64,000 nucleotides of DNA from an uncultured Chloroflexia bacterium (lineage in GTDB: Bacteria; Chloroflexota; Limnocylindria; Limnocylindrales; CSP1-4), in assembly GCA_963720315.1 (NCBI GenBank), contig CAVRFC010000005.1, positions 863,437 to 927,436 of the forward strand, given 5' to 3'. How positions within the stretch are numbered: the stretch's first letter is position 1; every line of letters begins with the position of its first letter. Positions 1,481 through 19,565 of the stretch are shown here, piece by piece. Position numbers and translations under genes: made by a program. The notes beneath the pieces are model-generated. The model was not told where the DNA came from and ran no database searches. It saw only the letters and a list, made by a program, of their open reading frames with translations.

Positions 1481-1588
1481 CGGCAGCGCCCTCCCTCGTT
1501 GAACGTTCTCTCTCGGGCTGACGATGGTACGCTCCGAACCCCCCGGGCGTGCACACGGCGCACCTCATCTGAGCGGGAGCCGCAACCA

Positions 1589-3280
1589 ATGGACCAGTCG
1601 TTCCGCGACGAGATGACGACGGGCTATGCCCTGGACGAGCCGTCCGTCGTGATCGGCAGCCCGATGCTCGATGGCGAGCTCTACAACGAGCCGCGGGTCC
1701 GGGTAGCGCTCTCGATGATGAACCGCCACGGGCTGATCGCCGGGGCGACCGGGACCGGCAAGACCAAGACCCTCCAGCTGCTCGCCGGCGAGCTGTCGAA
1801 GGCCGGCGTGCCGGTCTTCATCTCCGACATCAAGGGCGACGTCTCGGGTATGGCCGCACCCGGCGATGCGGCGAACCCCAAGGTCCAGGAGCGGGTGGCA
1901 TCCCTTGACTGGACGTTCGCGCCGTCGGGTCACCCGGTCGAACTGCTGTCGCTGTCGGGACTCCTCGGCGCTCAGGTCCGGGCGACCGTCTCGTCGTTCG
2001 GGCCGCTGCTCCTCGGCAAGGTCCTCGACCTCAATGAGACGCAGACCTCGATCCTGTCGCTGATCTTCAAGTACTGCGACGACAACCAGCTCCCGCTGCT
2101 CGACCTCGCCGACCTGGCGACGACCCTCAAGTACCTCGCGTCGGACGAGGGCAAGCCGATCCTCGACGAGTACGGCGGGATGTCGAGCGCGTCGGTCGGC
2201 GTGCTGCTGCGCTCGATCATCGTCCTCGAGCAGGAGGGGGTCGACGCCTTCTTCGGCGAGCCGGAGTTCGAGGTCGGCGATCTCCTCCGGACGACGCCGG
2301 ACGGCCAGGGCGTCGTCAGCATCCTCGAGCTGTCGGACGTCATGGACCAGCCCCGGATGTTCTCGACGTTCATGCTCTGGATGCTCGCCCAGCTGTACGA
2401 GCACCTGCCCGAGGCGGGCGACCTGCCGAAGCCGAAGCTCGTCTTCTTCTTCGACGAGGCGCACCTCCTGTTCGACGACGCGTCCGAGGCGCTGATGGAC
2501 CAGATCGAGCGGACGGCGCGACTGATTCGATCGAAGGGCGTCGGCGTCTACTTCGTCACCCAGGCGCCGACCGATGTCCCCTCATCGGTCCTGGCCCAGC
2601 TCGGCAACCGGATCCAGCACGCGCTCCGGGCGTTCACGCCCGACGACGCCGACGCGCTGCGCAAGACCGCCCGGACGTTCCCGATGACCGAGCGCTACGA
2701 CGTCGAGAAGACGCTCACGTCGCTGGGCATCGGCGAGGCGCTCGTCACCGTTCTGTCTCCACGGGGCGTGCCAACGCCGCTCGCTGCCACCCGCCTGCTG
2801 CCGCCGGACTCGCTGATGGCGCCGCTCCCGCCGGCGGAGTTCCAGGCCCGCATCGCGGCGAGCCTGCTGGCGACGAAGTACGCGATGGCGATCGATCGCG
2901 AGAGCGCCCACGAGATGATCTCTGGGCGCATCGCCGCCGCCCGGGCCGCGGCCGTCGACGTCGCCGCCCAGAACGCGGTTCGGGACCAGGTGAGCCCGAC
3001 GTCGGCCGGCGGGCTCAACACCATGACACCTGCCCAGCAGCAGCGCGAGATCGCCCGCCAGGCGCGGGCGATGGCCGCCGCCGAGAAGGCGGCCGAGCGC
3101 CAGCGCCAGGCCGAAGCGCGGCGACAGGCGTCCCTCGAGCGCGTCCGGCAGGCGGACGCCCGGAGGCGTGACAAGCAGGTTCAGACGGCGATCAGGACCG
3201 GCGGCAAGGTCCTCACCTCGAAGGCCGGCCAGGACATCATTCGGGGCGTCTTCGGGACGCTGTTCGGCCGCAAGGGCTGA
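1589..3280 (+). CDS. DUF853 / HerA-like (YjgR-type) P-loop NTPase
   Basis: Walker A GATGTGKTKT and Walker B LVFFFDEAHLLF, with a charged coiled C-terminal tail. ATG at 1589 chosen over the upstream alternative start at 1499. Confidence 0.85.
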   Translation: MDQSFRDEMTTGYALDEPSVVIGSPMLDGELYNEPRVRVALSMMNRHGLIAGATGTGKTKTLQLLAGELSKAGVPVFISDIKGDVSGMAAPGDAANPKVQERVASLDWTFAPSGHPVELLSLSGLLGAQVRATVSSFGPLLLGKVLDLNETQTSILSLIFKYCDDNQLPLLDLADLATTLKYLASDEGKPILDEYGGMSSASVGVLLRSIIVLEQEGVDAFFGEPEFEVGDLLRTTPDGQGVVSILELSDVMDQPRMFSTFMLWMLAQLYEHLPEAGDLPKPKLVFFFDEAHLLFDDASEALMDQIERTARLIRSKGVGVYFVTQAPTDVPSSVLAQLGNRIQHALRAFTPDDADALRKTARTFPMTERYDVEKTLTSLGIGEALVTVLSPRGVPTPLAATRLLPPDSLMAPLPPAEFQARIAASLLATKYAMAIDRESAHEMISGRIAAARAAAVDVAAQNAVRDQVSPTSAGGLNTMTPAQQQREIARQARAMAAAEKAAERQRQAEARRQASLERVRQADARRRDKQVQTAIRTGGKVLTSKAGQDIIRGVFGTLFGRKG

Positions 3281-3430
3281 CCGCCAGCAGGGTCTTCGGC
3301 CAAGTCGCAACGATCCCAGTGGTGCATGGAGGCACCGATCCGCTGAAAGCGGGGGTAGGATCGAATCGGACGCCGTTCGGCTCGTGCCGTGCGGTTGACG
3401 GGGGCAGCCGAGCGCGCGGACGAGGCACCG

Positions 3431-4263
3431 ATGCGGACCATCGCGATCATCAACCGCAAGGGGGGCTGCGGGAAGACGGCGGCCGCCGTCAGCCTCGCCG
3501 GCGCGCTCGGCAAATCCGGCCGTCGCTCGCTCCTCATCGATCTCGATCCCCAGGGGTCGGCGTCGTCGTGGATCGGACCCGGTCCAACAGACGGGCGCGA
3601 GCTGTTCGAGACGTTCCTCGGCACCCAGAGCCTGGCCGATCTCGCGCAGCCATCGCGAGCCTCTGGCGTCGATGTCGTACCCGCGTCATCGTGGCTTGTC
3701 ACCGCCGAGCGCACGCTCCAGGTGGATCTCGCGCTCGGCGCGATCCGAGCCCTCGAGCGCCTGCCGGCCGCCTGGGACTTCGTGCTCATCGACTGCCCGC
3801 CAACGCTCGGCTACCTCGCCAGCGCCGCCCTGTGCGGCTGCCATGAGGCAGTGCTACCGCTCCAGCCGCACGGGCTGGACGCGTCGGGGGTCGATCCGGT
3901 CCTCGAGGAAATGGCCCGGATCAGGCGGCAGCTCAACCCCGGCCTTGTCCTGACCGGCATCATCCTTGGTCGCGTCAGCCGGACGAATCACGCCCGGGAC
4001 GTCATGGCGTGGCTCCGCCAGACCTACGGACACGACGTATTCGAGCCCACGATCCGCGACAGCATCCGGGTGCCCGAGGCGGCGACGGCCGGACTCCCCG
4101 TCACCGCCTATGCGCCGGCTGCGAAGGTGGCCGCCGATGTCCGCGGTGTCGCCGACGAACTCATAGCGCGCGACCCCGACCCGCAACCCGCGTCGCCGAC
4201 GAGGCCGATGGGCAGGCCGGCTGGCGAGGCCTGGTCGGCCGGCTGGTCGGATCGCGGGCCTGA
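3431..4263 (+). CDS. Orphan ParA/Soj-family ATPase; 3' end unresolved
   Basis: MRTIAIINRKGGCGKTAAAVSLA (deviant Walker A KGGxGKT) and LLIDLDPQGS. The ParA-like region ends near 4180. As given, the frame has no stop until 5143 and runs antisense through PPK2. The end at 4263 assumes a 1-nt frame error (stop of the neighbouring frame). Confidence 0.65.
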
Positions 4264-4303
4264 ACATGGCCCCGGCCCGGCGGCGGGCCGGACCCGCCCG
4301 GTC

Positions 4304-5134
4304 CTACTCGACGATCACGCCCGTGAGGTCCTCGGTCGGCTCCGGATAGCGCGGATCGAGGTCGTCGAGCGTGTCGGCCAGGATGTCGCTGACGGCGAGG
4401 TTGCGGAACCACTTCTTGTTCGATGGGATGACGTACCACGGCGCCTTGTCCGTCGAGCAGCGCGACAACGCGTCCTCGTAGGCGGCGATGTACTCGTCCC
4501 AGTGCTTCCGTTCCTCGAGGTCGCCGAGCCGGAACTTCCAGCGCTTCGTTGGATCGTCGAGCCGGGCCTGGAAGCGCTCGCGCTGCTCGTCGCGATCGAT
4601 GTAGAGGAAGAACTTGATGATCGTCGTGCCTTCCTCGGCGAGCAGCTGCTCGAAAGCCTTGATCTGGTCGTAGCGGCGCGACCAGACGGCTTTCGGAACG
4701 ATGTCGTGGACGCGCACGACGAGGACGTCCTCGTAATGCGAGCGGTTGAAGACGCCGATCTCGCCCTTGCCGGGGACGCGTTTGTGGACGCGCCAGAGGT
4801 AGTCGTGGGCGAGCTCCTCGGGCGAGGGCACCTTGAACGCGGTGACGGGACAGCCCTGCGGGTTGAACGCGCCCATCACGTGGCGGAGCGTCCCGTCCTT
4901 GCCGGCCGCGTCGATTCCCTGGAGGACGACGAGGACCCGATGCTTGCCCTCGGCCCAGAGGCGGTCCTGGAGATCGGTCAGCCGGGCGAGGCCGGTCTCG
5001 AGCTCCTCGGCCGCGGCCTCCTTCGTCCAGCCGTGTGTCGCCGCCGGATCGACCTTCGCGAGGTCGAGGCGCGTGCCAGGACGGACGCGGAGGGCGGCGC
5101 GCAGGTCGGCGGGGTCGGCGGGCGATCGGGCCAT
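4304..5134 (-). CDS. ppk2: Polyphosphate kinase 2 family (polyphosphate:nucleotide phosphotransferase)
   Basis: VLVVLQGIDAAGKDGTLRHV (P-loop), FNRSHYEDVLVVRVH and WYVIPSNKKWFRN are typical PPK2 motifs over the full length. Confidence 0.9.
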   Translation of the reverse strand: MARSPADPADLRAALRVRPGTRLDLAKVDPAATHGWTKEAAAEELETGLARLTDLQDRLWAEGKHRVLVVLQGIDAAGKDGTLRHVMGAFNPQGCPVTAFKVPSPEELAHDYLWRVHKRVPGKGEIGVFNRSHYEDVLVVRVHDIVPKAVWSRRYDQIKAFEQLLAEEGTTIIKFFLYIDRDEQRERFQARLDDPTKRWKFRLGDLEERKHWDEYIAAYEDALSRCSTDKAPWYVIPSNKKWFRNLAVSDILADTLDDLDPRYPEPTEDLTGVIVE

Positions 5135-5178
5135 CGGCTGTAGGATGACACGCAGGCCACACGCAGGGAGTTCTTCCG

Positions 5179-6624
5179 ATGACGACCACCGCCGGCACCA
5201 AGCCGCACCCGATCTTCCTCGCCGGCCGCTGGGTCGAATCGGACGATCCGCTGGTCGTCACGAACCCGGCCAATCCGGACGAGCCGGCCGGCGCAACGTT
5301 CAACGCCAGCGAGGCCCAGTACGAGGAAGCGGTCGAGGCGGCCGTCGCAGCCTTCGAGGTGACCCGGACGTTGCCCGCCTACGAGCGCGGCGCGATCCTG
5401 CGGAACATCAGCGCCGGGATCAAGGCCCGACGCGAGGAGCTCGGCAAGATCATGGCCCGCGAGGCCGGCAAGCCGATCCGCGACGCGCTCATCGAGGTCG
5501 ATCGGGCGGTCATCACGTTCCGCCTCGGCGCCGAGGAGGCGGAGCGGATGGTCGGCGAGACGATTCCGCTGGACCTCATGCCCGCGTCCAAGGGCCGCGT
5601 CGGCATCACCCGCCGGTTCCCGATCGGTCCGATCGCCGGGATCAGCCCGTTCAACTTCCCGCTCAACCTCGCCGCCCACAAGCTGTCGCCGGCGATTGCC
5701 TCGGGCAACACGATCGTCCTCAAGCCGCCGTCGAAGGACCCGCTCACGATGCTGACCGTGGCCGAGATCATCGAGGAGGCCGGCCCGCCCGCCGGTTCGG
5801 TCAGCATCCTGCCGATGACCCGCGAGCTCGGCGACAAGATGGTCGCCGACGAGCGCTTCAAGCTCCTGACGTTCACCGGCAGTCCCTCGGTCGGCTGGCG
5901 GATGAAGGAGCGGGCCGGCAAGAAGAAGGTCGTCCTCGAGCTCGGCGGCAACGCGGGGGTCATCGTCGACAAGTCGGCCGACCTCGACTGGGCCGTCCGC
6001 CGGCTGCTTGTCGGTGCGTTCACGTATGCCGGTCAGGTCTGCATCAGCGTCCAGCGGATGTTCGTCCACGAGGACATCTGGGACGAGCTGATGAAGCGCT
6101 TCGTCGAGGGCGCGAAGTCGATCAAGATGGGCGATCCGCTCGATCCGGAGACGGAGCTCGGGCCGATGGTCGATGGGGCCGCCGCCGAGCGCACCCAGCG
6201 CTGGGTCGACGAGGCGGTGGCGATGGGCGGCAAGGTCCTGCTGGGCGGCAAGGCCGACGGCAACTTCTTCCCGCCGACGATCCTCACCGATGTCCCACCG
6301 CAGGCCCAGGTCTGCTCGAACGAGGCGTTCGCCCCGCTCGCCGTCGCCTTCCGGTTCAACGACTTCGGCGATGCCATCAGGCAGGTCAACGATTCGATGT
6401 TCGGGCTCCAGACGGGCGTGTTCACCAACGATCTCGCCAACTCGTGGCGGGCGTTCAACGAGCTCGAGGTCGGCGGGGTGATCGTCAACGACGTGCCGAC
6501 CTACCGGATCGACCACATGCCCTACGGCGGCGTCAAGGATTCGGGCCTCGGCCGGGAGGGCCTCCGCTGGGCGATCGAGGACATGACCGAAGTCCGGATC
6601 ATGGTGCTGGCCCAGCCCGGGTAA
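5179..6624 (+). CDS. NAD(P)+-dependent aldehyde dehydrogenase family protein
   Basis: ELGGNAG ... GQVCISVQR (catalytic Cys region), FTGSPSVG, full ~480-aa ALDH length. GGAG-like RBS before the ATG at 5179. Confidence 0.9.
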   Translation: MTTTAGTKPHPIFLAGRWVESDDPLVVTNPANPDEPAGATFNASEAQYEEAVEAAVAAFEVTRTLPAYERGAILRNISAGIKARREELGKIMAREAGKPIRDALIEVDRAVITFRLGAEEAERMVGETIPLDLMPASKGRVGITRRFPIGPIAGISPFNFPLNLAAHKLSPAIASGNTIVLKPPSKDPLTMLTVAEIIEEAGPPAGSVSILPMTRELGDKMVADERFKLLTFTGSPSVGWRMKERAGKKKVVLELGGNAGVIVDKSADLDWAVRRLLVGAFTYAGQVCISVQRMFVHEDIWDELMKRFVEGAKSIKMGDPLDPETELGPMVDGAAAERTQRWVDEAVAMGGKVLLGGKADGNFFPPTILTDVPPQAQVCSNEAFAPLAVAFRFNDFGDAIRQVNDSMFGLQTGVFTNDLANSWRAFNELEVGGVIVNDVPTYRIDHMPYGGVKDSGLGREGLRWAIEDMTEVRIMVLAQPG

Positions 6625-6665
6625 TCGGGCTCCTTGGCCGCTACGTTGTCCGCGTAATCGGGCTC

Positions 6666-6839
6666 CCTGGTCCGCCAGCCGGACCAACGGACGAACGGGA
6701 CTCTCGACCTGGCCCAATTCGGCCTGCTCCACCGTCTACTGGTCCGGCAGCCGAACCAGATGGCGAACGAAGCCAGGGATCCGGCCCGATTTGACTGCCC
6801 CGCCCGCTCGTTGGTCCGCGAGCCGGACCGGGCGCGGCC
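6666..6839 (+). repeat. Copy A of a ~172-nt three-hairpin intergenic repeat (MITE/REP-like, terminal inverted repeats)
   Basis: Contains three TGGTCCG-N3-5-CGGACCA palindromes plus the conserved spacers ACGGACGAACGGG and CCCGCTCGTT. Aligns along its length with 7547..7718 and 9865..10038. Ends 1 nt before the stop of the HTH gene. Confidence 0.85.
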
Positions 6840-7502
6840 TCAGAGAATTACGATGGCACCCCGTCCCGGGTCCCGCCCCGCACTCAGCGCCGCCATCATC
6901 TCGCGAGTGCGGGCCGGCATCAGGTGGTCCAATCCCACTCCGATCGACGCCAGAGCCCGACGATTAGCCCGGGTGTCGGACACCAACAGGATCAGGTGAC
7001 CAGTCGGATCGTCGCGGACCTTAAGCCCGAGGCGCCGCTCCAGTGCCTGTCCATCGGCGATCCGCGTCTCAGCTTCGACGCGAGCCCGCCACGGCGTCGG
7101 ATGGCGACCGGTGATCTCCGCGTCCCATGCCCGCAGGTCGCCCTCGATGGGAAGCGGCACCTCGGTTCGCCACCGTAGGCTCGGGTGAAGTCGCGCCCTG
7201 AGGCGGTCGAGCAGCTGCAGCTGTGCGCGGTCTCGGATCGGGTCACCGGCCGGGTAGGCTCGAAGGCCCAGGTCGAGACCCACGACAGCGCACCACGCTC
7301 CGAGCTCGGCGATCGACACGCGCTCCAACTCCCCTCGCTCGAAACGCAGGAGCTGTTGATGCGAAGCGGTTGACGCGGCCGCGACCTCCCGAAGGCTGAG
7401 GCCGGCGCCCACGCGCGCCTGCCGATGTTCCTGCCCCAAACGCCTGAAGGCGTCCTTCGCGCGTCGGCGCCCTCGATCCGCCGGTCGCTCGCGGGTTCCC
7501 AT
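6840..7502 (-). CDS. XRE-family helix-turn-helix protein with an uncharacterised C-terminal domain
   Basis: The N-terminus RQARVGAGLSLREVAAASTASHQQLLRFERGE is a Cro/C1-type HTH. The C-terminal ~130 aa has a D...E-x-E-like pattern (RAWDAEI ... RVEAETR) weakly reminiscent of a PD-(D/E)xK fold. Confidence 0.75.
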   Translation of the reverse strand: MGTRERPADRGRRRAKDAFRRLGQEHRQARVGAGLSLREVAAASTASHQQLLRFERGELERVSIAELGAWCAVVGLDLGLRAYPAGDPIRDRAQLQLLDRLRARLHPSLRWRTEVPLPIEGDLRAWDAEITGRHPTPWRARVEAETRIADGQALERRLGLKVRDDPTGHLILLVSDTRANRRALASIGVGLDHLMPARTREMMAALSAGRDPGRGAIVIL

Positions 7503-7546
7503 GCTCGCATCATCCGACTCTGGGCTTTACCGGCGCTTTACTGACA

Positions 7547-7718
7547 CCCGGTCCGCCAGCCGGACCAACGGACGAACGGGCGAGTGGAACCGGGCCGAAT
7601 CGACCCGCTCCTCCCTCTGTTGGTCCGGTGGCCGGACCAATGGACGAACGAAGCCTGGAATCCGGCCCGATTGAGCCGTCCCGCCCGCTCGTTGGTCCGC
7701 GAGCCGGACCAAGGGCCC
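7547..7718 (+). repeat. Copy B of the ~172-nt three-hairpin repeat
   Basis: Same three palindromes and spacers as copy A, in direct orientation. Lies between the HTH gene start (7502) and the terminator of the lyase-like gene. Confidence 0.85.
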
Positions 7719-7733
7719 GAGATCAGAGAAACG

Positions 7734-7763
7734 ACGAACCCGCCGGTGGCCCGGCGGGTTCGT
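7734..7763 (-). terminator. Stem-loop downstream of the minus-strand gene 7788..9680
   Basis: ACGAACCCGCCGG-TGGC-CCGGCGGGTTCGT, a perfect 13-bp stem 25 nt after the stop codon (CTA at 7788-7790). Confidence 0.6.
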
Positions 7764-7787
7764 TCTGCGACTAGCTCCGAGGGAGCC

Positions 7788-9680
7788 CTATGACCGCTGC
7801 ATCACGAAGAACGCGTCGACGGCGAACCACGGCCGGCCCGACGTCCCGAGGGCGCGGACCGTGACCGTATGGCTGCCGTCGGACGTGAAGATCGTCTGGA
7901 GGATTCGCCTCGCCCGGAAGCTGGACGAATAGGTATCGATGGTGACCAGCAGCGCACCGTCGAGGTAGACCTCCGCCTTGCCTCGGGTCGGGCCGGTGGG
8001 CCCGACCAGTCCGAAGCTCGGACCGTTGAACGTGAACGTGACCCTCGAGCCCCTCGTCTCCGAGGCACGCGCCTTGCCACCGAGGTAGTCGGGATGGCCG
8101 GCGGTGACCCACGTACCGGTGTAGGTAGCCGCCGTCTCCTGGGCAACGCTGGCGGTTAGCGTCGGTCCCGTGACCCAGGCAGAGGCCCTATCGGCCTTGT
8201 CGAACGCCCGGACCCGGTAGCGGTAGGCTCGTCCCGGAACCGCGGCGACGATCGCGGATGTCGAGCTGGCGGACGCCAGCGTGACATTGGCCCACGATCC
8301 GCCGTCGATCGACTGCTGGAGCTGGTACAGCGCCAGCGTCGTGGCGTCGCCGGTGAGCTTCCACGAGGTGTAGAGCGGCACGGTCCCGGCCGCGAACGAC
8401 AAGCCACCGGGAATCCGCGTTGATGGACCGGTCGTCCCGACGGTGGCCGTTCCGGAAACCGGCGTCGGTATCGGCGTTGGTGTCGGGGTCGGGGCCGGTG
8501 TCGGCGCAGGTGTCGGGTCCGTACCGCTGGCATTCGGGCCGTAGATCCAGTCGGTGAACCCGAAGTTCTTGCCGAACCGGACCGGCGGCGAGAGCTTGTA
8601 GCTCGTGCCGTACCGGGCGTCGAGCAGCCAGGTCTGCCACTCGTCATCGTCAGTCGCCGGCCACTTCGCTCGGTTGTAGAGGAATCGGACGGCTCGCAGC
8701 AGTGCCTTGTTCTCCCAGTTCCAGCTGTCGTAGCCGGCGACGCGGAGGAGCTCCGCCTGGAGAAGGGCGCCCTGCAGGCTTTCCCACGGATACCCGGTTC
8801 CGGTCGGCGGCCAGCGGAACGAACCGCCGCGGCGCATGTCGTCCGGGATGACGCCGTCGATGCTGATGCCGGCCTTCAAACAGCCGGTTGGGTTGATTCC
8901 CACCGGTTTCGCCGCATTGCACTGCCACGTCAGGTCGTCGCCGAAGTTGAATCCGGCGTACGTGGCGCGCGATCCGAGGAACCCCCGGAAGACCGTTGCC
9001 GCTCGCACCATCTGCGCCGTATCGCCGAGGTAGGCGGCTATCGCGACTCGGGCGGCGCCCGCATGGTTGCCCCAGTTGTTAGGGCGCTTCTCGTGGGTCA
9101 TGACGAGCGTCTGCCCATCGAGCACCTTCGTGAGCAGAGAGCGAAGCCAGGGCCTGAACCTCTCGTTGAATGCCGGGTCGGCGGTCTTCAGCGAGATCAG
9201 GTCGGCGGCGATCACGAGGCTCGGCAGGTTACGTCCGAGCGCGAGCGTCCGCCCGCCGACTTCGGTGCCTTTGGCTGCCTTCAACGCCGCGATGACGGCC
9301 GTTCGATAGCTGACGGTCCCGGTCCGCGCATACACCAGCGCCTTGGCCAGGACGGTGATGTCCGAATTCTCGTCCTGGTCGGACAGGGTCAGGGTGCCGA
9401 CGGCCTGATCGGCCACGGCCTTCAGGCCTCTCCAGGCCGCGCCCGACATCGGCTTCGTCCGAAGGGTGGCCGCCGAGACGAGCACGGGCCGAGTGGCGGC
9501 CTCAGCGCTATCAAGTCCCGGATCGACGAACAGTTGCGAGAGGATCAGCGTGGCGGCGAGAAGGACCTGTCCGACCACGATGACGCTGCGGTGACGGTTT
9601 CTGCGAGGTAGACCGAGGGTGACTCCCCCGGCCGCTTGACGTGGCGCCCTCTGGGCGCCGTTGGGCGGAATCCCCGACAT
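7788..9680 (-). CDS. Secreted polysaccharide-lyase-like protein (alginate-lyase/heparinase-type alpha-toroid) + Pro/Thr linker + FN3-like + beta-sandwich CBM-like domain (paralog 1)
   Basis: Signal anchor IVVGQVLLAATLIL; HEKRPNNWGNHAG motif shared with 17898..19565 and 38605..40595; [15 protein letters not shown] linker; C-terminal GPTGPTRGKAEVYLDG beta-sandwich. ATG at 9680 preferred over the ORF maximum at 9827. Confidence 0.75.
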   Translation of the reverse strand: MSGIPPNGAQRAPRQAAGGVTLGLPRRNRHRSVIVVGQVLLAATLILSQLFVDPGLDSAEAATRPVLVSAATLRTKPMSGAAWRGLKAVADQAVGTLTLSDQDENSDITVLAKALVYARTGTVSYRTAVIAALKAAKGTEVGGRTLALGRNLPSLVIAADLISLKTADPAFNERFRPWLRSLLTKVLDGQTLVMTHEKRPNNWGNHAGAARVAIAAYLGDTAQMVRAATVFRGFLGSRATYAGFNFGDDLTWQCNAAKPVGINPTGCLKAGISIDGVIPDDMRRGGSFRWPPTGTGYPWESLQGALLQAELLRVAGYDSWNWENKALLRAVRFLYNRAKWPATDDDEWQTWLLDARYGTSYKLSPPVRFGKNFGFTDWIYGPNASGTDPTPAPTPAPTPTPTPIPTPVSGTATVGTTGPSTRIPGGLSFAAGTVPLYTSWKLTGDATTLALYQLQQSIDGGSWANVTLASASSTSAIVAAVPGRAYRYRVRAFDKADRASAWVTGPTLTASVAQETAATYTGTWVTAGHPDYLGGKARASETRGSRVTFTFNGPSFGLVGPTGPTRGKAEVYLDGALLVTIDTYSSSFRARRILQTIFTSDGSHTVTVRALGTSGRPWFAVDAFFVMQRS

Positions 9681-9864
9681 CCTGCTCCCTTCTACCAGAA
9701 CGACACGCTGGGGCGTGCCGAACGAAGTTATGGCCCGGCCGCTCGGAGGGCGGGGCAATTGACGGTAGAACGGGTGCTGCGCGTGACCTCGCGCCTGGGG
9801 GTCGCCCGTCCTGACCGTAGTTTGCACCGCGCGTCAAATCCGGCCCTACCCCGGTCGTTGACCG

Positions 9865-10038
9865 TCTGGTCCGCTAGGCGGACCAACGGACGAACGGGAC
9901 CATGGAACCGCGCCGAATTGAACCGCTCCTCCGTGTGCCGGTCCTGTAGCCGGACCAAGTGACGAACGAAGCTGGGAATCCGGGTTGACTGGAGCATCCC
10001 ACCCGCTCGTTGGTCCGCCAGCCGGACCAAGGCGACCG
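9865..10038 (+). repeat. Copy C of the ~172-nt three-hairpin repeat
   Basis: Same architecture as copies A and B, slightly more diverged in hairpin 2. Lies upstream of the lyase-like gene and before the ACAD gene. Confidence 0.8.
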
Positions 10039-10109
10039 GCCCAGAGCCGTCGTCTCGTCGCTCGGGACGCTTGGAACGACGGTGCGGCCGGCGCATCATG
10101 CTCCGACCG

Positions 10110-11286
10110 ATGGACCTGACGCTCGATCCAGGACAGCTCGAGCTCCAGGCGCGCGCCCGGGCGTTCGTCATCGATGTGCTCCAGCCGCTCGAGGAGGAGT
10201 TCGAGCGAGCGAACGGGCGGCTTTCACGGAAACAGGGGAGCGACCTTCGCAACGCCGCGATCGAGGCCCGACTTCAGGGCGGCTCGCTGCCGCGGGAGGT
10301 CGGTGGCCAGGGCTGGACGGTCCTGGAGCAGGTGATCGTTCATGAGCAGCTGGGCCAGGTCACGGGTGGGCTCTGGTCGTACATCCCCGGCGCCTACAAC
10401 GCGCTGGTCCACGCGACGCCGGAGCAGCGCGAGCGGTACCTCGATCCCTCGCTCCGCGGCGAGCGGTCCGGCAGCTACGCCGTCACCGAGGAGGCCGCCG
10501 GCTCCGACGCCCGAACGCTCGCGGCGACCGCGATGCGAGACAAGGCCACCGGGGACTACATCCTCAACGGCGAGAAGTGGTTCGTCACAGGCCCCGACGA
10601 CACCGATTTCATGATTTTCCACTGCGTCGTGGTCGACGGCGACAAACGGCTGCCGACGCTCTTCCTCGTCGATTACGACACGCCGGGCGTGACGCTGAAG
10701 CACGACCCGGACTACATGCACACGTTCGCCGACCGCCACCCGCAGTTCGTCCTCGACGACGTCCGGGTGCCAGCGACCGCGGTGCTGGGCGCGGTGGGGG
10801 AGGCCGACGCGCTGACAAACGAGTGGTTCGTCGAGGAGCGGATCCACATCGGGGCGCGCTGCAGCGGGGCGATGGAGCGGCTCCTGGCGCTGGCAGTCGA
10901 ATGGGCCACGAGCCGGCGACAGTTCGGCGAACGGATCTACGACTTCCAGGGCGTCTCGTTCCCGCTCGCCGACTCGGCCGCGGACGCGTCCGCCGCGCGG
11001 CTCCTCACCCGCGAGGCGGCCTGGCTCGCGGACACCGGCGCGGACCCAGAAGGTCGTTCACGCCAAGGCGTCGCTCGCCAAGCTGTTCGCCTCGGAGGCC
11101 GCGTTTCGGTGCGCCGACCGCGTCGTCCAGGTCTTCGGTGGCCGCGGTTACATGCGCGAGTTCCCGGCCGAGCGCTTCTTCCGCGAGCTGCGTGTCGACC
11201 GGATCTGGGAAGGCACCTCGGAGATCCAGCGATTGATCGTCGCCCGGGCGATGGAGACGCGCGGCGTGTCGAGGGTCGTCGGGTGA
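10110..11286 (+). pseudogene. Acyl-CoA dehydrogenase, reading frame broken near 11047 (possible sequencing indel)
   Basis: N-terminal 310 aa lie in frame 3 (YAVTEEAAGSDA, GEKWFVTG). The C-terminus KVVHAKASLAKLFASEAAFRCADRVVQVFGGRGYMREFPAERFFRELRVDRIWEGTSEIQRLIVAR continues in frame 1 and ends with TGA at 11284-11286. Confidence 0.85.
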
Positions 11287-13519
11287 GCGCGGAGGCGAAG
11301 GCGACCGAGGTGCCGACCGTCGCGCCGACGACGCCGCGGGCCATTGACCTTCGGCCCCTCTTCGCTCCTCGCTCCATCGCCGTCGTCGGCGCGTCGCCGC
11401 GGAGTGGCATCGCCAAGATCGTCCAGCACAACCTGACGGTCATGAAGAGCGCGACCCGCTGCCACTTCGTCAACCCGCGCTACGACGAGCTCTACGACCA
11501 GCCGTGCTACCCGTCGCTCGACGCGCTGCCCGGAGATCCCGGACACGGTCCTCGTGGCGCTCAATCCGCTCCGGGCGGCCGCCGTCACCGAGGAGGCCGC
11601 CCTGGCCGGCGTCCCGAGCGTGATCATCCCCGGCGGCGGCGTCGTCGAGGGCGGCGAGGCGGCAGCCCAGATGCAGCGCGATGTCCGCGAGATCGCGGTC
11701 CGCCACGGGATCGCCCTCCTCGGCCCGAACTGCATGGGCATGATCGACCTGACGACGAACGCGGCGACCTACATCGGGGATGTCAATCCGTGGCTGCCGC
11801 GGGGCGGCGTCGCGGGCATCGCCCAGTCGGGTTCGGTGACGGACGCGTTCATCCACTCCGGGTCGCGGATCGGCTTCTCGCGGGTCATCGGCTGCGGCAG
11901 CGAGGTCGTCCTCGATGCCTGCGACTTCCTCGCCTACTGCCTCGACGACCCCGAGACCCACTCGGTCATCCTGTTCATGGAGGGCTTCAAGCGGCCGGAG
12001 CGGTTCCTCGCCCTCGCCGATCACGCGCTCGAGCTCGGCAAGCCGATCATGGTCGTCAAGGTCGGACGCAGTCCGCAGGCGCAGGCCGCGGCGGTCGCCC
12101 ACTCGGGCTCGCTCGCGGGCGAGGACCGGGCAACCGATGCCGCGCTGCGGGCGGCGGGTGTCATCCGCTGCGACGACCTCGACGAGCTCCTCGAGACCGC
12201 GGAGCTCGTCGCCGGCTGCCGCCGGCTCGGGCGGAGCGTTGGCCGCGGTCGGACGGGTGTCGTGACCGTGTCGACGGGCGAGGCCTCGCTCATCGCCGAC
12301 CTCGCGCCGCGAACCGGCATCGACCTGCCACCGGTCCCGGCGGAAACCCGCGCCCGGCTGCTGCGCGACCTTCCGACGCTCGGCTACGTCGGCAACCCGC
12401 TGGACCCATGGGGCGCCACGGACCCGACGACGGCCTACGCCGCGGCGTTCGATGCGTTCGCCGATTCCGGCGCCTACGACGTCCTCGCGATCGTCCACGA
12501 CTTCCCGTACCGATCCCTTCCCGGCGAGGTCGAGGTCGCGCACGCCGTGACGGATGAGCTGATCCGCGCCACGGCGGATCGTCCCGAGCTCATGCCGGTG
12601 TACATCTCCCTGACCTCGGGCGAGCCGCCGCCGGAGACGAAGCGCCATCTCGACGAATCAGGCGGCGTGCCGATCCTCCGGGGAACCGTCGAGGCGTTCA
12701 CGGCCATCGCCTCGCTGGCCGCCTGGGAGGGCGCCCGAACCCGACGGATCGACGGAGGCCCGATCCGGACGGGCTGGCCGGCGCTGGCCTCCGACCGGAC
12801 GCCGTGGGGCTTTGACACCGACATGGCAACCGGGAGCGCGCCCAGCGCCGGTGATGCCCGCGCCCTCTCCGAGCGCGAGAGCCTGGCCATCCTCGCCGCC
12901 GCCGGCATCCCCGTGGTCTCGGCGCGCTCCGCCGCCGACGCCGATGCCGCCGTCGCGGCCGCCGCCGAGATCGGGGGCAGCGTCGCCCTCAAGCTCGACG
13001 CCGAGGGCCTCGCCCACAAGAGCGACGTCGGCGCGGTGAGGCTGGACCTTGCCGGCGACGACGCGGTCCGCCGCGCCGCCCAGGAGCTGCTCGCGCTCGG
13101 CGCGGGGCTGGCGGCCGAAGGATCGGCCACGATCCGTGGCTTGCTCGTCGAGCCGATGGCCCCGCCCGGCCTCGAGCTCATCGCCGGCGTCAGCCGCGAC
13201 CCGCAGTTCGGCCCGATCGTCCTCGTCGGCATCGGCGGCGTCCTGGCCGAGGTCCTCGACGACGTCTCACTCCGCCTCGCACCGGTGTCCTCGAGCGAAG
13301 CGCTGGCGATGCTCGCGGAGCTCCGCGGCGCGAGACTCCTGGACGTCACCAGGGGCCGGCCGGCGATCGATCGCGAGGCCGTCGCCTCGATCCTCGTCGC
13401 GCTCGGGCGCGCTGGCCGTGGCGCGCCCGGACATCCGGGCGATCGATCTCAATCCCGTCATCGCCGGCCCTGAAGGTGCGATCGCGGTCGACGCCCTCGT
13501 CGTCCTGGAGCCCGGATGA
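11283..13519 (+). pseudogene. ADP-forming acetyl/acyl-CoA synthetase (CoA-binding + succinyl-CoA-synthetase-like + ATP-grasp fusion), two frame breaks (~11535 and ~13400)
   Basis: GTG at 11283 overlaps the ACAD stop (GTGA). RSIAVVGASPRSG lies in frame 3, the main body 11554..13473 in frame 1 (LLGPNCMGMI, GIAQSGS), and the C-terminus ALAVARPDIRAIDLNPVIAGPEGAIAVDALVVLEPG in frame 2, ending at 13519. Confidence 0.85.
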
Positions 13520-17465: not shown

Positions 17466-17897
17466 CGGGCGATCGTACGCGAGTCCCCGATCGCCGATCT
17501 CGTCGAGGATGCCCGGGCCCGCGCCGGGCTGGGTGGTGCGCCGGCGCGCCAGCAACTCGCGATTGAGACGCCTGCGGATCGCCAGTGGGGGCGACGTACG
17601 TACCGCACCCTAGCGCACCCTCCGTATCAGGACCCCCAACGAACACGCCAGCCGCCGACGGACCAAGGTCGGGCTTGGCCCGGAGTGGATCGTCGGGCAA
17701 GGTAGGGGAGTCGCATTCCGCTGACCCTCAGCTCCGGAATGCGCGACCAAAGGCACACCCGTCGCGAGGCGGGGTCGCAAAGCTTCGGACCTGGGAACAG
17801 GTGGCCGGGCTGCCGTCTGAGCTAGCCGCGACGTCACAGCGGCAAATCGGTAGCACCGCCTCCTGCCCGCACGGGCCCGCCGGTAGGAGTCGCCCCC

Positions 17898-19565
17898 ATG
17901 CGAAACATCCGAGTCGCCGATCCTCGGGATCGCGTCCTCGCCGACCCGAATCCCCCGATCCCGACCCGGCGCTCTCGCGGCTCTCGCGCTCGCGACATCA
18001 TTCTCACGATCCCAATCGCGCTCCTCCTTCCCGCGATCGTCCTCTTGTCCGCCCCAACGGCCGCCAGCGGCCCGACCCTGACTGCAACCCCAACGACGAT
18101 CGCGGCCGGCACGAAGGTGACCTTGCGCGCCGCAAGCTTCCCCGCTGGCAGTGACGGCATGATCGTCCTCGACGACGGCGCGGAGGAGCTGGCCCTGTAT
18201 CGCGTCAACGGCAAGGGCAAGTTCCGCGTGGCGGTCGTCATGCCGGTCGCCGTCGCGCCCGGAAAGCACACGGTGCGAGCCCAGTCGGGCTCGGTGACGG
18301 TTGCCGAGCTCGTGGTCACCGTGACCTCCGAAAATGCGGAGCCGACTCCGGTCCCGACACCCAACCCGACCCCGGTCGTGACGCCTCCCCCGACGCCTGC
18401 TCCCACGCCTGCTCCCACGCCGGCACCGACGCCGGTCGTCACGCCTCCCCCGACGCCCGCCCCCACGCCGGCACCGACGGTCGCTCCCGTGCCCACGCCG
18501 ACCGCGACTCCGACTCCGACGCGAACACCAACCCCAACCGCCGCGCCGACGGCGACCCCCCAGCCGAGCTCGACTCCGGCACCGCTGCCGACCGCGACGC
18601 CCGCCCCGACCACCGGCCCGGCTCCGGCGAGCGGCACGATCCTCATCGACCGGGCGACGCTGATGTCCCTCCCGATGAGCGGCTCAGGGTGGCTCGCGCT
18701 CAAGGCGCGCGCCGATCTCCCGGTCGGTTCCCCAAACCTCTCCAACCAGGATGACCCGAACGACGTCACGGCCCTGGCCAAGGCGCTCGTGTACGCGCGG
18801 ACCGGCGTGGTCCGCTACCGCGATGAAACGATCACGATGCTCAAGGCGGCTGTCGGGACCGAGTATCCCGGCGACGCCCTCGGCATCGCCCGAGGTGTCG
18901 CGCCGCTCGTCCTGGCCGCAGACCTCGTCGGCTGGCGCGATCCCACCTGGATGAGCTGGCTCAGCAGGCTCCGAACCTGGGCGAACCCCGACCGTGGCTT
19001 CACCCTGATCAGCATGCATGACAAGCGCCCGAACAACTGGGGGGCCCACTCCGGTGCGGGTCGCATCGCGACCGACCTCTACCTCGGCGACATGGTCGAC
19101 CTCGCTCGCGCTGCGAAGGTGTTCAAGGGGTACCTCGGCGACCGGGCCTCGTACGCCTCGTTCACCTACGGCAGCGACCTTAGCTGGCAGGCGAGCGCGG
19201 TTTCGCCCGTCGGCATCAATCCGGCCGGCGGGACACTTGACGGGATCATGCCGGACGACATGCGCCGCGGCGGCCCGAGCCCGGAAGTCGGCGATCTCGG
19301 CCAGAGCTATACCTGGGAGGCCCTCCAGGGCACCCTGCTCCAGGCGGAGCTCCTCTCCCGCAACGGCTACCCGGCCTGGGACTGGCAGAACCAGGCCATC
19401 CTGCGGGCGTTCTACCGCATCAACGCCCTCGGCTACCCGGCCGTCGGTGACGACCGCTGGCAGCCGTGGCTCATCAACCGCCGCTACGGCACCTCGTTCG
19501 CGGCGTCGACCAGCACGACCGCGGGCAAGAGTTTCGGCTACACCGACTGGCTCTTCGCGAGGTAG
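17898..19565 (+). CDS. Secreted Ig-like + long Pro/Thr linker + polysaccharide-lyase-like domain (paralog 2)
   Basis: Signal anchor [19 protein letters not shown]; about 100 aa of PT-rich linker; [16 protein letters not shown] and the rest colinear with 7788..9680 (e.g. [33 protein letters not shown]). Confidence 0.8.
18372..18479 (+). repeat. Imperfect tandem duplication (60 + 48 nt) inside the Pro/Thr linker coding region
   Basis: CCGGTCGTGACGCCTCCCCCGACGCC... recurs as CCGGTCGTCACGCCTCCCCCGACGCC..., encoding [16 protein letters not shown] twice. Confidence 0.6.

Follow-up and report, generated by a model that had tools for sequence, protein, structure and literature searches.

Background

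Dispersed palindromic repeats are common in bacteria, and a cognate protein is known for few of their families, chiefly the REP-associated tyrosine transposases (RAYTs) of GTAG-tagged repetitive extragenic palindromes (REPs). The present study concerns a repeat family found in a stretch of 64,000 nucleotides (nt) from an uncultured Chloroflexia bacterium (contig CAVRFC010000005.1, positions 863,437 to 927,436), called here the window. Three direct copies of an element of about 172 nt, each an array of three palindromes, surround a gene for a helix-turn-helix (HTH) protein of 220 amino acids. We propose that the arrays are the cognate sites of this protein, whose C-terminal half resembles a nuclease, and that gene and array form a mobile module; we would give this joint statement an even chance of being correct. 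Literature searches returned no description of the repeat family or of the protein family, so that the pairing is apparently new to the literature.

The closest described systems share some traits of the locus and lack others. REPs are recognized by a conserved tetranucleotide, GTAG (or CGTC), at one of the palindrome's ends, and the REPs with CGTC seem to have no transposase of their own (PMC3733652). Like REPs and bacterial interspersed mosaic elements (BIMEs), the palindromes studied here are short, have a conserved tail, are dispersed intergenically in regularly spaced composites, and flank one protein-coding gene; as with RAYTs, repeat and protein co-vary between lineages, and copies are inherited vertically at orthologous sites. 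The protein is of another kind: RAYTs are IS200/IS605-type HUH tyrosine transposases, whereas ours is predicted to join an XRE-type HTH to a PD-(D/E)xK-like domain, and no match to Y1_Tnp was found among the open reading frames (ORFs) tested. No GTAG stands beside the stems; a GACG, which is CGTC on the other strand, lies 6-7 nt from the stem, inside the tail. Copies seem to number tens at most, by pattern scans that give lower bounds, against hundreds for REPs (usually more than 100 per genome); the unit has a period of 72 nt, and there is usually a single array, upstream of the gene. Finally, the substrate here would be double-stranded or cruciform DNA, and not the single-stranded hairpins of the REP system.

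Insertion sequences (IS) and their miniature inverted-repeat transposable elements (MITEs), of the Correia, ERIC or BOX type, offer a second comparison: here, too, there is an apparently autonomous unit (about 1.1 kb) with gene-less derivatives (about 172 nt), and ends that are inverted repeats. As in the A-B(n)-C structure of pneumococcal BOX, the number of internal modules varies, with seven hairpins in L016 and short-period arrays in L014 and L020 (related loci are designated by the letter L and a number). Unlike in these systems, no DDE, serine or tyrosine transposase was seen in the ORFs examined, no target-site duplication is visible, the repeat usually stands at one end only, and the ends are putatively whole arrays of binding sites instead of simple terminal inverted repeats. 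The attC sites of integrons, such as the Vibrio cholerae repeats, recall our element by their direct copies of 120-170 nt, their imperfect dyad symmetry, their position around single genes, and the fact that related genomes differ by the presence or absence of cassettes, and possibly by their order. They differ in that the attC core consensus is absent here, that three equal hairpins take the place of a bulged R-L stem, and that the window ORFs and related loci yielded neither an integrase nor attI or Pc.

The operators of XRE/Cro-C1 regulators, such as OR1-3 of phage or the C-boxes of controller proteins, are likewise multiple palindromes of the 17-bp class located 5' of the regulator gene, with the spacing of an HTH dimer. 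In contrast with them, our sites are 72 bp apart and not adjacent, the array is copied to many loci including the 3' ends of genes, and the regulator appears to be fused to a nuclease-like domain, the whole unit being putatively mobile. In centromere arrays such as sopC of the F plasmid, a dimeric HTH protein binds to the 7-bp inverted repeat present in every tandem unit. Our arrays also consist of tandem units that each hold a 7-bp inverted repeat, and they differ by being chromosomal, scattered and made of three units per site. A ParA-like gene (~3389-4200) lies 2-3 kb from the arrays; it shows no conserved linkage to them in other genomic contexts.

Results

Three arrays with a period of 72 nucleotides

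The features that define the locus are the following.

6617..6670, no strand: 21-nt duplication, two copies 33 nt apart (6617-6637 and 6650-6670, 90% identical)
6666..6839, + strand: copy A, with palindromes 6669-6685, 6741-6757 and 6813-6829; flanked by the 3' ends of two convergent genes, those for aldehyde dehydrogenase and the HTH protein
6840..7502, - strand: HTH protein, 220 amino acids; XRE-type HTH at residues ~20-80, C-terminal domain at ~88-220
7503..7546, - strand: leader between copy B and the HTH start, with the direct repeat GTAAAG-N5-GTAAAG on the gene's strand
7547..7718, + strand: copy B, putative 'home' array 5' of the HTH gene, with palindromes 7550-7566, 7622-7638 and 7694-7710
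9865..10050, + strand: copy C with its degenerate 3' tail, with palindromes 9868-9884, 9940-9956 and 10012-10028

The three copies, at 6666-6839, 7547-7718 and 9865-10038, have a common orientation. The initial annotation had read these coordinates, the nine palindromes and the inverted-repeat ends from the sequence, and all of them hold. So does its account of the surroundings: copy A ends at 6839, directly adjoining the HTH stop codon (6840-6842); copy B starts 44 nt upstream of the HTH ATG at 7502; and copies B and C flank a lyase-like gene. Copy C sits between this gene and a divergent acyl-CoA dehydrogenase gene, and its left flank (9835-9864) is similar to the leader beside copy B.

A repeat finder reports one family, with three copies of 165 nt at 80-82% identity to copy B, and the mean column identity is 85% when copies and flanks are aligned by MAFFT. 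Allowing for no more than one mismatch, the palindrome GGTCCG-N5-CGGACC has 11 matches in the window, nine of which are those listed above; dinucleotide shuffles give an expected count of 1.48 +/- 1.2, and none of 100 shuffles reaches 11. Within each copy the distance from one palindrome to the next is exactly 72 nt: each copy is thus composed of 2.3-2.4 tandem units of 72 nt, and Tandem Repeats Finder, applied to copy B, returns a period of 72 and 2.3 copies. A unit consists of a palindrome of 17-21 nt, a 3' tail (CCAACGGACGAACGGG type), and a spacer of about 40 nt, and an inverted version of the tail stands 5' of the next palindrome in the array. The core of the palindrome is TGGTCCG-N3-CGGACCA, each with a conserved ACGGACGAACGG-type tail; its geometry is that of two 7-bp arms around a 3-bp centre, with half-site centres 10 bp apart. 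Such a layout suits a dimer of the XRE type, in line with the remark of the initial annotation on dimeric HTH proteins.

The ends of each copy are imperfect inverted repeats, with arms of 33-34 nt that are 74-76% complementary; the consensus terminal repeats are CCTGGTCCG...ACGG and CCG...CGGACCAGG. The element reaches about 13 nt past the third hairpin, in a degenerate tail (CCAGGnGCCGAnGG), and a degenerate outer tail is also present at the left. A profile of copies A, B and C searched with nhmmer detected no fourth copy anywhere in the window: its only three copies lie within 3.4 kb around the HTH gene, and none lies in the other 60 kb.

The whole element can be folded as one long hairpin, with a predicted RNA minimum free energy of -88 kcal/mol (z = -3.0). 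The pairings between hairpins of different units are not kept between copies, and there is no covariation within the repeat family, whose stems are invariant and offer no informative pairs. The check by folding and covariation proposed in the initial annotation thus gave a stable fold on one side and no covariation on the other. No Rfam family matches the elements at gathering score, and only chance-level microRNA matches appear with E up to 10. A CRISPR array, which has identical repeats, unique spacers and usually cas genes, was a candidate that we rejected: the 72-nt 'spacers' are homologous among the three copies and to one another. No cas genes were seen.

At the left of copy A, the 13-nt direct repeat of the initial annotation is present, and is part of a longer unit, the 21-nt duplication listed above. 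It is a small tandem duplication of the point where the aldehyde dehydrogenase stop meets the outer left tail and the start of copy A. Among the aligned orthologues, L012, L016 and L005 lack it, and it is restricted to the window and to L003, the closest relative of the window. This duplication, the 72-nt period, the extended ends and the absence of a further copy in the window are additions to what had been described.

Arrays upstream of the HTH gene in other lineages

The exact sequence of the 220-amino acid protein has no record in protein look-ups, and its Pfam matches are limited to HTH_31/HTH_3; the structures closest to its HTH are those of ClgR, C.BclI/C.AhdI, HipB and SinR. A word-indexed search yields 1,515 homologues, and an exhaustive search with the C-terminal domain yields 820 clusters at 50% identity, nearly all of about 217 amino acids and with an identical two-domain layout. 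All named homologues belong to Chloroflexota. We compared the surroundings of the gene in the window and in ten further lineages, eleven in all, and it proved to occupy six genomic contexts that are unrelated to one another:

aldehyde dehydrogenase / acyl-CoA dehydrogenase: the window's clade
amidohydrolase / glyoxalase: L023-L029
between coxS and coxM: L030, L032
beside bipA: L031
beside dnaE: L039, L041
beside an ABC transporter gene: L040

Protein identity to the window is 64-78% in the amidohydrolase/glyoxalase, coxS/coxM and BipA contexts, and 39-47% in the DnaE and ABC-transporter contexts.

A palindrome array is found just 5' of the HTH start in nine of the 11 lineages, usually with a period of about 72 nt. 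All eight lineages at 64-100% identity have palindromes upstream, degenerate ones in L028, L030 and L032. In the three distant lineages, the upstream DNA contains palindromes for L040, tandem repeats of 60 nt for L041, and nothing clearly palindromic for L039. The last palindrome is 44-70 nt from the start in the four cases examined, namely the window, L026, L027 and L031. The arrays outside the window's clade read as follows.

L026: GGTCCG..CGGACC, 3 sites, spaced 82 and 72 nt
L023/L025: TTGTTCC-N7-GTAACAA, 3 sites, 72 nt
L027: GGAACG..CGTTCC, 3 sites, 72 nt
L028: GTCCCG..CGTGAC, 2 sites, 72 nt
L031: TTGGTTCG-N5-CGAACCAA, 4 sites every 72 nt, as near-perfect tandem copies
L032: TGGTACG..CGTACCA and degenerate relatives, irregular
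L040: GGCACG-N5-CGTGCC, 4 sites, 41-71 nt
L030: degenerate palindromes
L041: 60-nt tandem repeats with a conserved CAAGCGACCGGCGG tail
L039: no clear palindromes

Across lineages, the half-sites are thus GGTCCG, GGTTCG, GGTACG, GGAACG, GGCACG and TTGTTCC. Changes fall at positions 4-6, and the flanking G and CG are constant. When the eight stem positions are compared in register, 81% of cells are paired, compared with 69% after shuffling of the columns and 28-40% for slid controls, and 27 cells have changed on both sides, against 11 expected; the stem covariation score between lineages is 0.331 against 0.123, with none of 500 shuffles as high, these dyad statistics being inflated by the fact that the variant palindromes were partly found by a search for palindromes.

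The recognition helix of the protein has the consensus A-S-H-x-Q-L-x-R-F-E-R-G, and varies at x and at neighbouring positions. The window and L026 share both GGTCCG and the helix SHQQLL, though their proteins are just 73% identical; the other pairs are SHAQLW with GGTTCG, SYPQLS with GGTACG, AYTQLW with TTGTTCC, SHARVG with GGAACG, and SHTTVS with GGCACG. In these comparisons, which cover about nine lineages, the half-sites change symmetrically and track the recognition helix. Among the readings proposed in the initial annotation, that of operator arrays for the HTH protein is the one most strengthened, both by the upstream arrays in other contexts and by half-sites that follow the helix.

The leader of the HTH gene is possibly a promoter or an operator. 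Pairs of the related motifs GTGAAG/GTAGAG stand at the equivalent position in L026, L027, L031 and L037. A scan with the consensus sigma-70 promoter gave zero matches.

The C-terminal domain

Residues 88-220 have no match in Pfam, NCBIfam, PADLOC, PHROGs, or in sequence searches of the PDB. The AlphaFold model has a confidence (pLDDT) of 87 for the full protein and of 91 for the C-terminal domain, whose topology, alpha-beta-beta-beta-alpha-beta, is the core order of restriction-endonuclease-like (PD-(D/E)xK) enzymes. Foldseek finds only HTH proteins with the full-length model. With the C-terminal domain alone, matches in the PDB are weak, at E-values of 0.08 or more, and nearly all are nucleases of the PD-(D/E)xK superfamily (NucS/EndoMS, YaeQ, SfsA, MUS81, DdmD, PaqCI, PspGI); in the viral library BFVD, they reach E-values of 1e-3 to 1e-2, with probability up to 1.0 and TM-scores around 0.5, and are named restriction endonuclease (of phage), endonuclease, homing endonuclease, VRR-NUC, Mrr and MmcB-like. 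Residues E114, D127, E143, E145, Q152 and K161 are invariant down to 39% identity, and the acidic ones among them sit on beta strands 1-3 of the predicted fold. Judging from the model, a restriction-endonuclease-like fold is likely for this domain.

A module apparently inserted at different sites

In the cox operon of L026, coxS and the small ORF that precedes coxM overlap by 4 nt, according to the coordinates of the called genes; in the orthologous operon of L032, coxS is separated from the blocks of the small ORF and coxM by 1,205 nt. This segment contains the array and the HTH gene, the latter on the opposite strand, and L030 is alike. From this comparison of sequences, the array and gene appear as a module inserted in the cox operon of two lineages. 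In every context, the HTH stop codon abuts or overlaps the neighbouring gene: the unit is thus delimited by this stop codon on one side and by the array's far end on the other, and measures about 1.1 kb.

The gene found at the 3' end of the HTH gene varies even between syntenic loci: a 272-amino acid protein of no known kind, no gene, or Peptidase_S66 in L023, L026 and L027, and a 634-amino acid protein of no known kind or a GH25 lysozyme-like protein in L039 and L041. The flank of the module may be a hot spot of gene turnover in these other lineages too.

In the window's clade the HTH gene lies between two full elements, and the five other contexts have the upstream array alone. Copy A is at the orthologous position in L003, L012, L016, L022, L005 and L038, and corresponds to the element E2 at the HTH 3' end in L037. 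The order A-HTH-B-lyase-C is that of L003+L010, at 93% identity, and of L016, in which B is expanded to seven palindromes. Other relatives depart from it. In L012, a long-read metagenome-assembled genome (MAG), the order is A-HTH, a single element, then acyl-CoA dehydrogenase: the lyase-like gene and one element are missing, and the single element has the left flank of B and the right flank of C. In L022, A-HTH-B-lyase is found without copy C, and 53 nt, possibly a remnant, replace 209 nt. In L037, finally, a single short-read contig, aldehyde dehydrogenase-E1-lyase-E2-HTH-E3-acyl-CoA dehydrogenase presents the two units in reverse order, with every breakpoint inside an element.

The sequences beside the left ends of B, C, E2 and E3 are related (GTCAGTAAAGCGCCGGTAAAGCC type), which indicates that the lyase-like gene carries an array and a leader like those of the HTH gene. 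The hybrid elements of L012 and L037 are too divergent for the crossover point to be placed by diagnostic positions. These patterns fit recombination at the arrays, and do not by themselves distinguish site-specific from homologous recombination. The suggestion that the copies are recombination sites of a cassette system is therefore borne out in part: relatives do differ by units bounded by elements, but homologous recombination could suffice, the attC consensus is absent, and no integrase was found in the window ORFs tested or the related loci.

A dispersed family

Genomes, one per species, were scanned with a strict 24-base pattern covering the first palindrome and its tail, so that copy numbers are lower bounds. 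The scan detected 21 loci in 7 MAGs labelled Chloroflexia, Chloroflexota or Candidatus Limnocylindrales, or 3-10 loci per MAG, and MAG MFD05747.bin.2.90 has at least 10 elements on five contigs. At these loci the profile matches from end to end (model positions 2-170). An alignment of 23 copies has a sharp left boundary at the first hairpin, (C)C(T/C)GGTCCG, beyond which the flanks are unrelated. Every copy is intergenic, and each of the four possible arrangements with respect to flanking genes is represented, with no orientation bias; several copies are just 3' of genes. No recurrent neighbour genes were found at solo copies except through orthology. A second chromosomal site (L001/L006/L011/L019) is occupied in four MAGs, which indicates that copies are vertically inherited.

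The family is thus neither confined to the three sites of the window, an outcome that the initial annotation had named as damaging to its proposal, nor limited to one genome: full-length intergenic copies with a sharp left boundary occupy many unrelated loci, in no fewer than seven MAGs of Chloroflexota, as expected of a MITE- or REP-like family. This comparison holds for the dispersal, and fails for the target-site duplication, which is not visible, for the copy number, which seems low, and for the transposase, none of a known type having been found.

The arrays also vary in length. The B site of L016 (L016:5836-6255, MAG MFD08497.bin.2.148) has seven palindromes that form three overlapping elements; its HTH reading frame (L016:6364-6961) is broken at residue ~167, either as a pseudogene or by a sequencing indel. 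At an orthologous site of two MAGs (L014:6500-6660 and L020:170-400), palindrome and tail are repeated as 4-5 tandem units, with a period of 43-51 nt and near-identical short linkers. The L011 copy has an internal deletion. A second motif, GGGGATG(A/G)GTG(C/G)GCAAC, with GTGCGCAACC-like units, directly follows the element at two unrelated loci of MFD05747.bin.2.90 (L012:2918-3030, and the right flank of L004, ~4150-4250, - strand); in L012, it is a 113-nt insertion relative to the window.

Conservation is uneven within the element. The six-base arms of both outer palindromes are invariant in 23 of 23 copies, and the spacers vary. Between the window and five relatives, the first hairpin with its tail, and the tail with the third hairpin, are 91-100% identical in nearly all comparisons, with one at 85%; third codon positions of the aldehyde dehydrogenase gene are 75-92% identical, and spacers 48-97%. 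To judge from these identities, palindromes and tails are selectively conserved and spacers drift near-neutrally. The absence of covariation within the family indicates that the constraint bears on the sequence, beyond mere pairing.

Neighbouring genes

The other features of the locus are listed here.

5179-6624, + strand: aldehyde dehydrogenase, stop TAA at 6622-6624
7734..7763, - strand: intrinsic-terminator-like hairpin at the lyase-like gene's 3' end, with a 13-bp stem followed by a run rich in T
7788..9680, - strand: alginate-lyase-like secreted protein (Pfam PF05426), ~630 amino acids when counted from the ATG of 9680, within an ORF that stays open up to 9827
from ~10100, + strand: acyl-CoA dehydrogenase (gene map)

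The GC content at third codon positions is 0.76 for the HTH gene, against 0.92-0.94 for neighbouring genes, a low value that agrees with mobility of the module. Only 41 nt separate the aldehyde dehydrogenase gene from copy A in the window; in MAG OTE_51 (L005:857-1114), an extra 85-amino acid ORF with a hydrophobic N terminus lies between them.

The lyase-like gene at 7788-9680 is a paralogue, at 50% identity, of 17898-19565 (+), which codes for a 555-amino acid alginate-lyase-like protein and is preceded, 80 nt upstream, by a c-di-GMP-I riboswitch (Rfam RF01051, 54.5 bits) at 17742-17817 (+). Both paralogues contain tandem repeats, at 8460-8517 and 18381-18502 (units of 6/12 nt and 12-48 nt), which probably encode low-complexity linkers. 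Beside the two genes, an exopolysaccharide cluster extends over ~24-49 kb, with Wzy_C, GT2, GNVR, Polysacc_synt, UDP-glucose dehydrogenase and Bac_transf.

Compared with L022, the frames of the acyl-CoA dehydrogenase and CoA-ligase (ATP-grasp_5) genes shift at ~11050, ~11535 and ~13406, which makes the 828-amino acid ORF at 10071-12557 an artefact. The shifts are either indel errors of long reads or pseudogenes; they suggest a long-read assembly with indel errors, the repeat structure being unaffected. The same comparison identifies, at 1499-5143, a HerA/DUF87-type ATPase, a ParA/MinD-like ATPase (AAA_31/CbiA), and a PPK2 kinase on the opposite strand; the 584-amino acid ORF at 3389-5143 overlaps the PPK2 gene and is probably an over-extended call. 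Lastly, the ORFs 3-995 and 21524-22714 are paralogous, with about 66-70% DNA identity through shared matches to L003 and L022; the second, of 396 amino acids, has no Pfam match.

Discussion

A proposed partnership of protein and arrays

We now return to the proposal that arrays and protein belong together. The product of 6840-7502, with a predicted XRE-type HTH joined to a PD-(D/E)xK-like domain, would have the arrays as its DNA partner: a dimer would bind each palindrome, and copy B would be the home array of the module, from which the HTH gene would regulate itself. The module of about 1.1 kb would have entered the chromosome at sites that differ from one Chloroflexota lineage to another, and, in the window's lineage, gene-less arrays would have spread to other intergenic sites in the manner of REPs and BIMEs, or of MITEs. 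At the window's locus, the direct copies would be the points where units of a single gene, HTH or lyase-like, are gained, lost or reordered. For example, a circle with one array might integrate into a resident array, which would leave its gene between two direct copies, as the HTH gene is between A and B.

As for the agent of movement, the nuclease-like domain may cut or resolve the sites, perhaps as extruded cruciforms, thereby moving the module and spawning solo arrays. This is a possible role, advanced tentatively; alternatively, host homologous recombination does the work.

Several observations weigh against this proposal. On the side of mobility, a classical IS has two ends, and the module of most lineages has an array at one, the upstream one; there is no clean empty site, the sole case of presence and absence, that of copy C compared with L022, having 53 nt that are unalignable or a remnant; no flanking direct repeat that could be a target-site duplication exists at the 23 aligned copies; and orthologous copies are stably inherited, with no sign of recent mobility. 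The order of L037 comes from a short-read metagenome, and may be an artefact, an alternative walk through an assembly graph in which repeats are collapsed. On the side of the pairing, the HTH gene was found by tblastn only at orthologous loci and not beside solo copies, so that its link to them is the identity of the site sequence only; solo copies lie at convergent gene ends as often as upstream of genes, which is a poor fit to a simple regulon; and, as said, the dyad statistics are inflated and the correlation with the helix involves few lineages. On the side of the domain, no PDB fold match is below an E-value of 0.07, the fold assignment relies on moderate Foldseek scores, and the motif of the third beta strand is ExE and not (D/E)xK.

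Competing explanations

Two simpler explanations have to be considered, and we regard each of them as unlikely. The first is that the element is a passive dispersed repeat of the REP, BIME, BOX or MITE kind, spread by some other transposase or by recombination, with no functional tie to the HTH protein, and that differences between loci result from RecA-dependent recombination. A dispersed, intergenic and orientation-independent family with inverted-repeat ends and varying numbers of tandem units, whose members fold as one long hairpin and occur alone, away from any HTH gene, is what this predicts, and homologous recombination or slippage is expected to produce the deletion of L012, the expansion of L016 and the internal deletion of L011. 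It leaves unexplained, however, why an array stands upstream of the homologues of one gene in six unrelated contexts, why the palindromes change symmetrically and in step with the recognition helix, and why the only three copies of a 64-kb window surround the HTH gene. Among the window ORFs tested and the annotated related loci, none proved to have a transposase or recombinase domain.

The second explanation is purely regulatory: the arrays would be the operators of an autoregulated XRE-family factor whose C-terminal domain serves as a sensor or for oligomerisation, and the dispersed copies would be its regulon, with no mobilisation involved. The 7-bp arms with half-site centres 10 bp apart, the position of the arrays, which in many lineages precede the start of the gene by about 45 nt, and the fact that the structures nearest to the HTH belong to autoregulators all agree with it, and the lyase-like gene, with its copy of the array and its HTH-like leader, would share the control. 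But genes converge on copy A and on several of the solo copies, so that these have nothing to regulate, and three sites 72 bp apart with near-neutral spacers are an unusual layout for an operator. Neither the invariant acidic residues retained on a nuclease-like fold, nor the insertion of gene and array in the cox operon, is accounted for by regulation alone.

It is very unlikely that the element acts as a structured RNA, either a small RNA or a terminator or stabiliser within transcripts. The stable predicted structure and the several copies just downstream of genes would suit such a role, but there is no Rfam match even at E = 10, copies occur in all four orientations relative to flanking genes, stems are simply invariant without covariation, pairings between hairpins are not conserved, and the lyase-like gene has a separate, canonical terminator beside copy B.

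An integron-like array, with attC-like sites served by a tyrosine recombinase encoded elsewhere in the genome, is the least credible explanation, to the point of being highly improbable: single genes do stand between direct repeats with internal dyad symmetry, the differences among relatives concern whole cassettes and perhaps their order, and CCAAC/GTTGG in inverse positions faintly recall the R''/R' boxes, but GACCAAC and GTTGGTC are each one position off RYYYAAC and GTTRRRY, the majority of copies stand alone at scattered positions, the lyase cassette comes with a separate terminator and leader, the site sequence is invariant and tied to the HTH protein, and no integrase exists in the window ORFs tested, as the initial annotation had already remarked of recombinases, or in the Pfam lists of related loci. 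The identity of the element as attC was rejected on these two grounds, the mismatch with the consensus and the lack of an integrase.

Mobile repeat, recombination site and operator, the three readings of the initial annotation, thus each find support and none is complete; the nuclease-like domain and the mobile module had not been anticipated.

Conclusions

The comparative data give one family of dispersed palindromes a specific candidate partner, a protein of a different architecture than RAYT, from a family of several hundred clusters without a profile match in the libraries searched. The proposed pairing is that of a 220-amino acid protein with a 17-bp palindrome (TGGTCCGNNNCGGACCA), and natural variants of its specificity exist.

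Going one step further, it may be conjectured, though we find it doubtful, that this is a selfish or domesticated element of Chloroflexota, of a kind not recognised so far, in which a small site-specific nuclease uses its own palindrome arrays of 72-bp period, perhaps extruded as cruciforms, to move its gene, to seed gene-less arrays, and to capture or shuffle cassettes. If true, it would be a functional analogue of the REPIN-RAYT system or of the integron, built on an unrelated enzyme.

One copy of the array now stands in front of a polysaccharide-lyase-like gene. If the protein is a mere repressor, the locus would still be a clear case of an operator array turned into a mobile, promoter-proximal module. 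If the nuclease-like domain is active on its sites, the system would represent a new route for the proliferation of repeats, the mobility of genes and the formation of cassettes in a little-studied phylum of soil bacteria.

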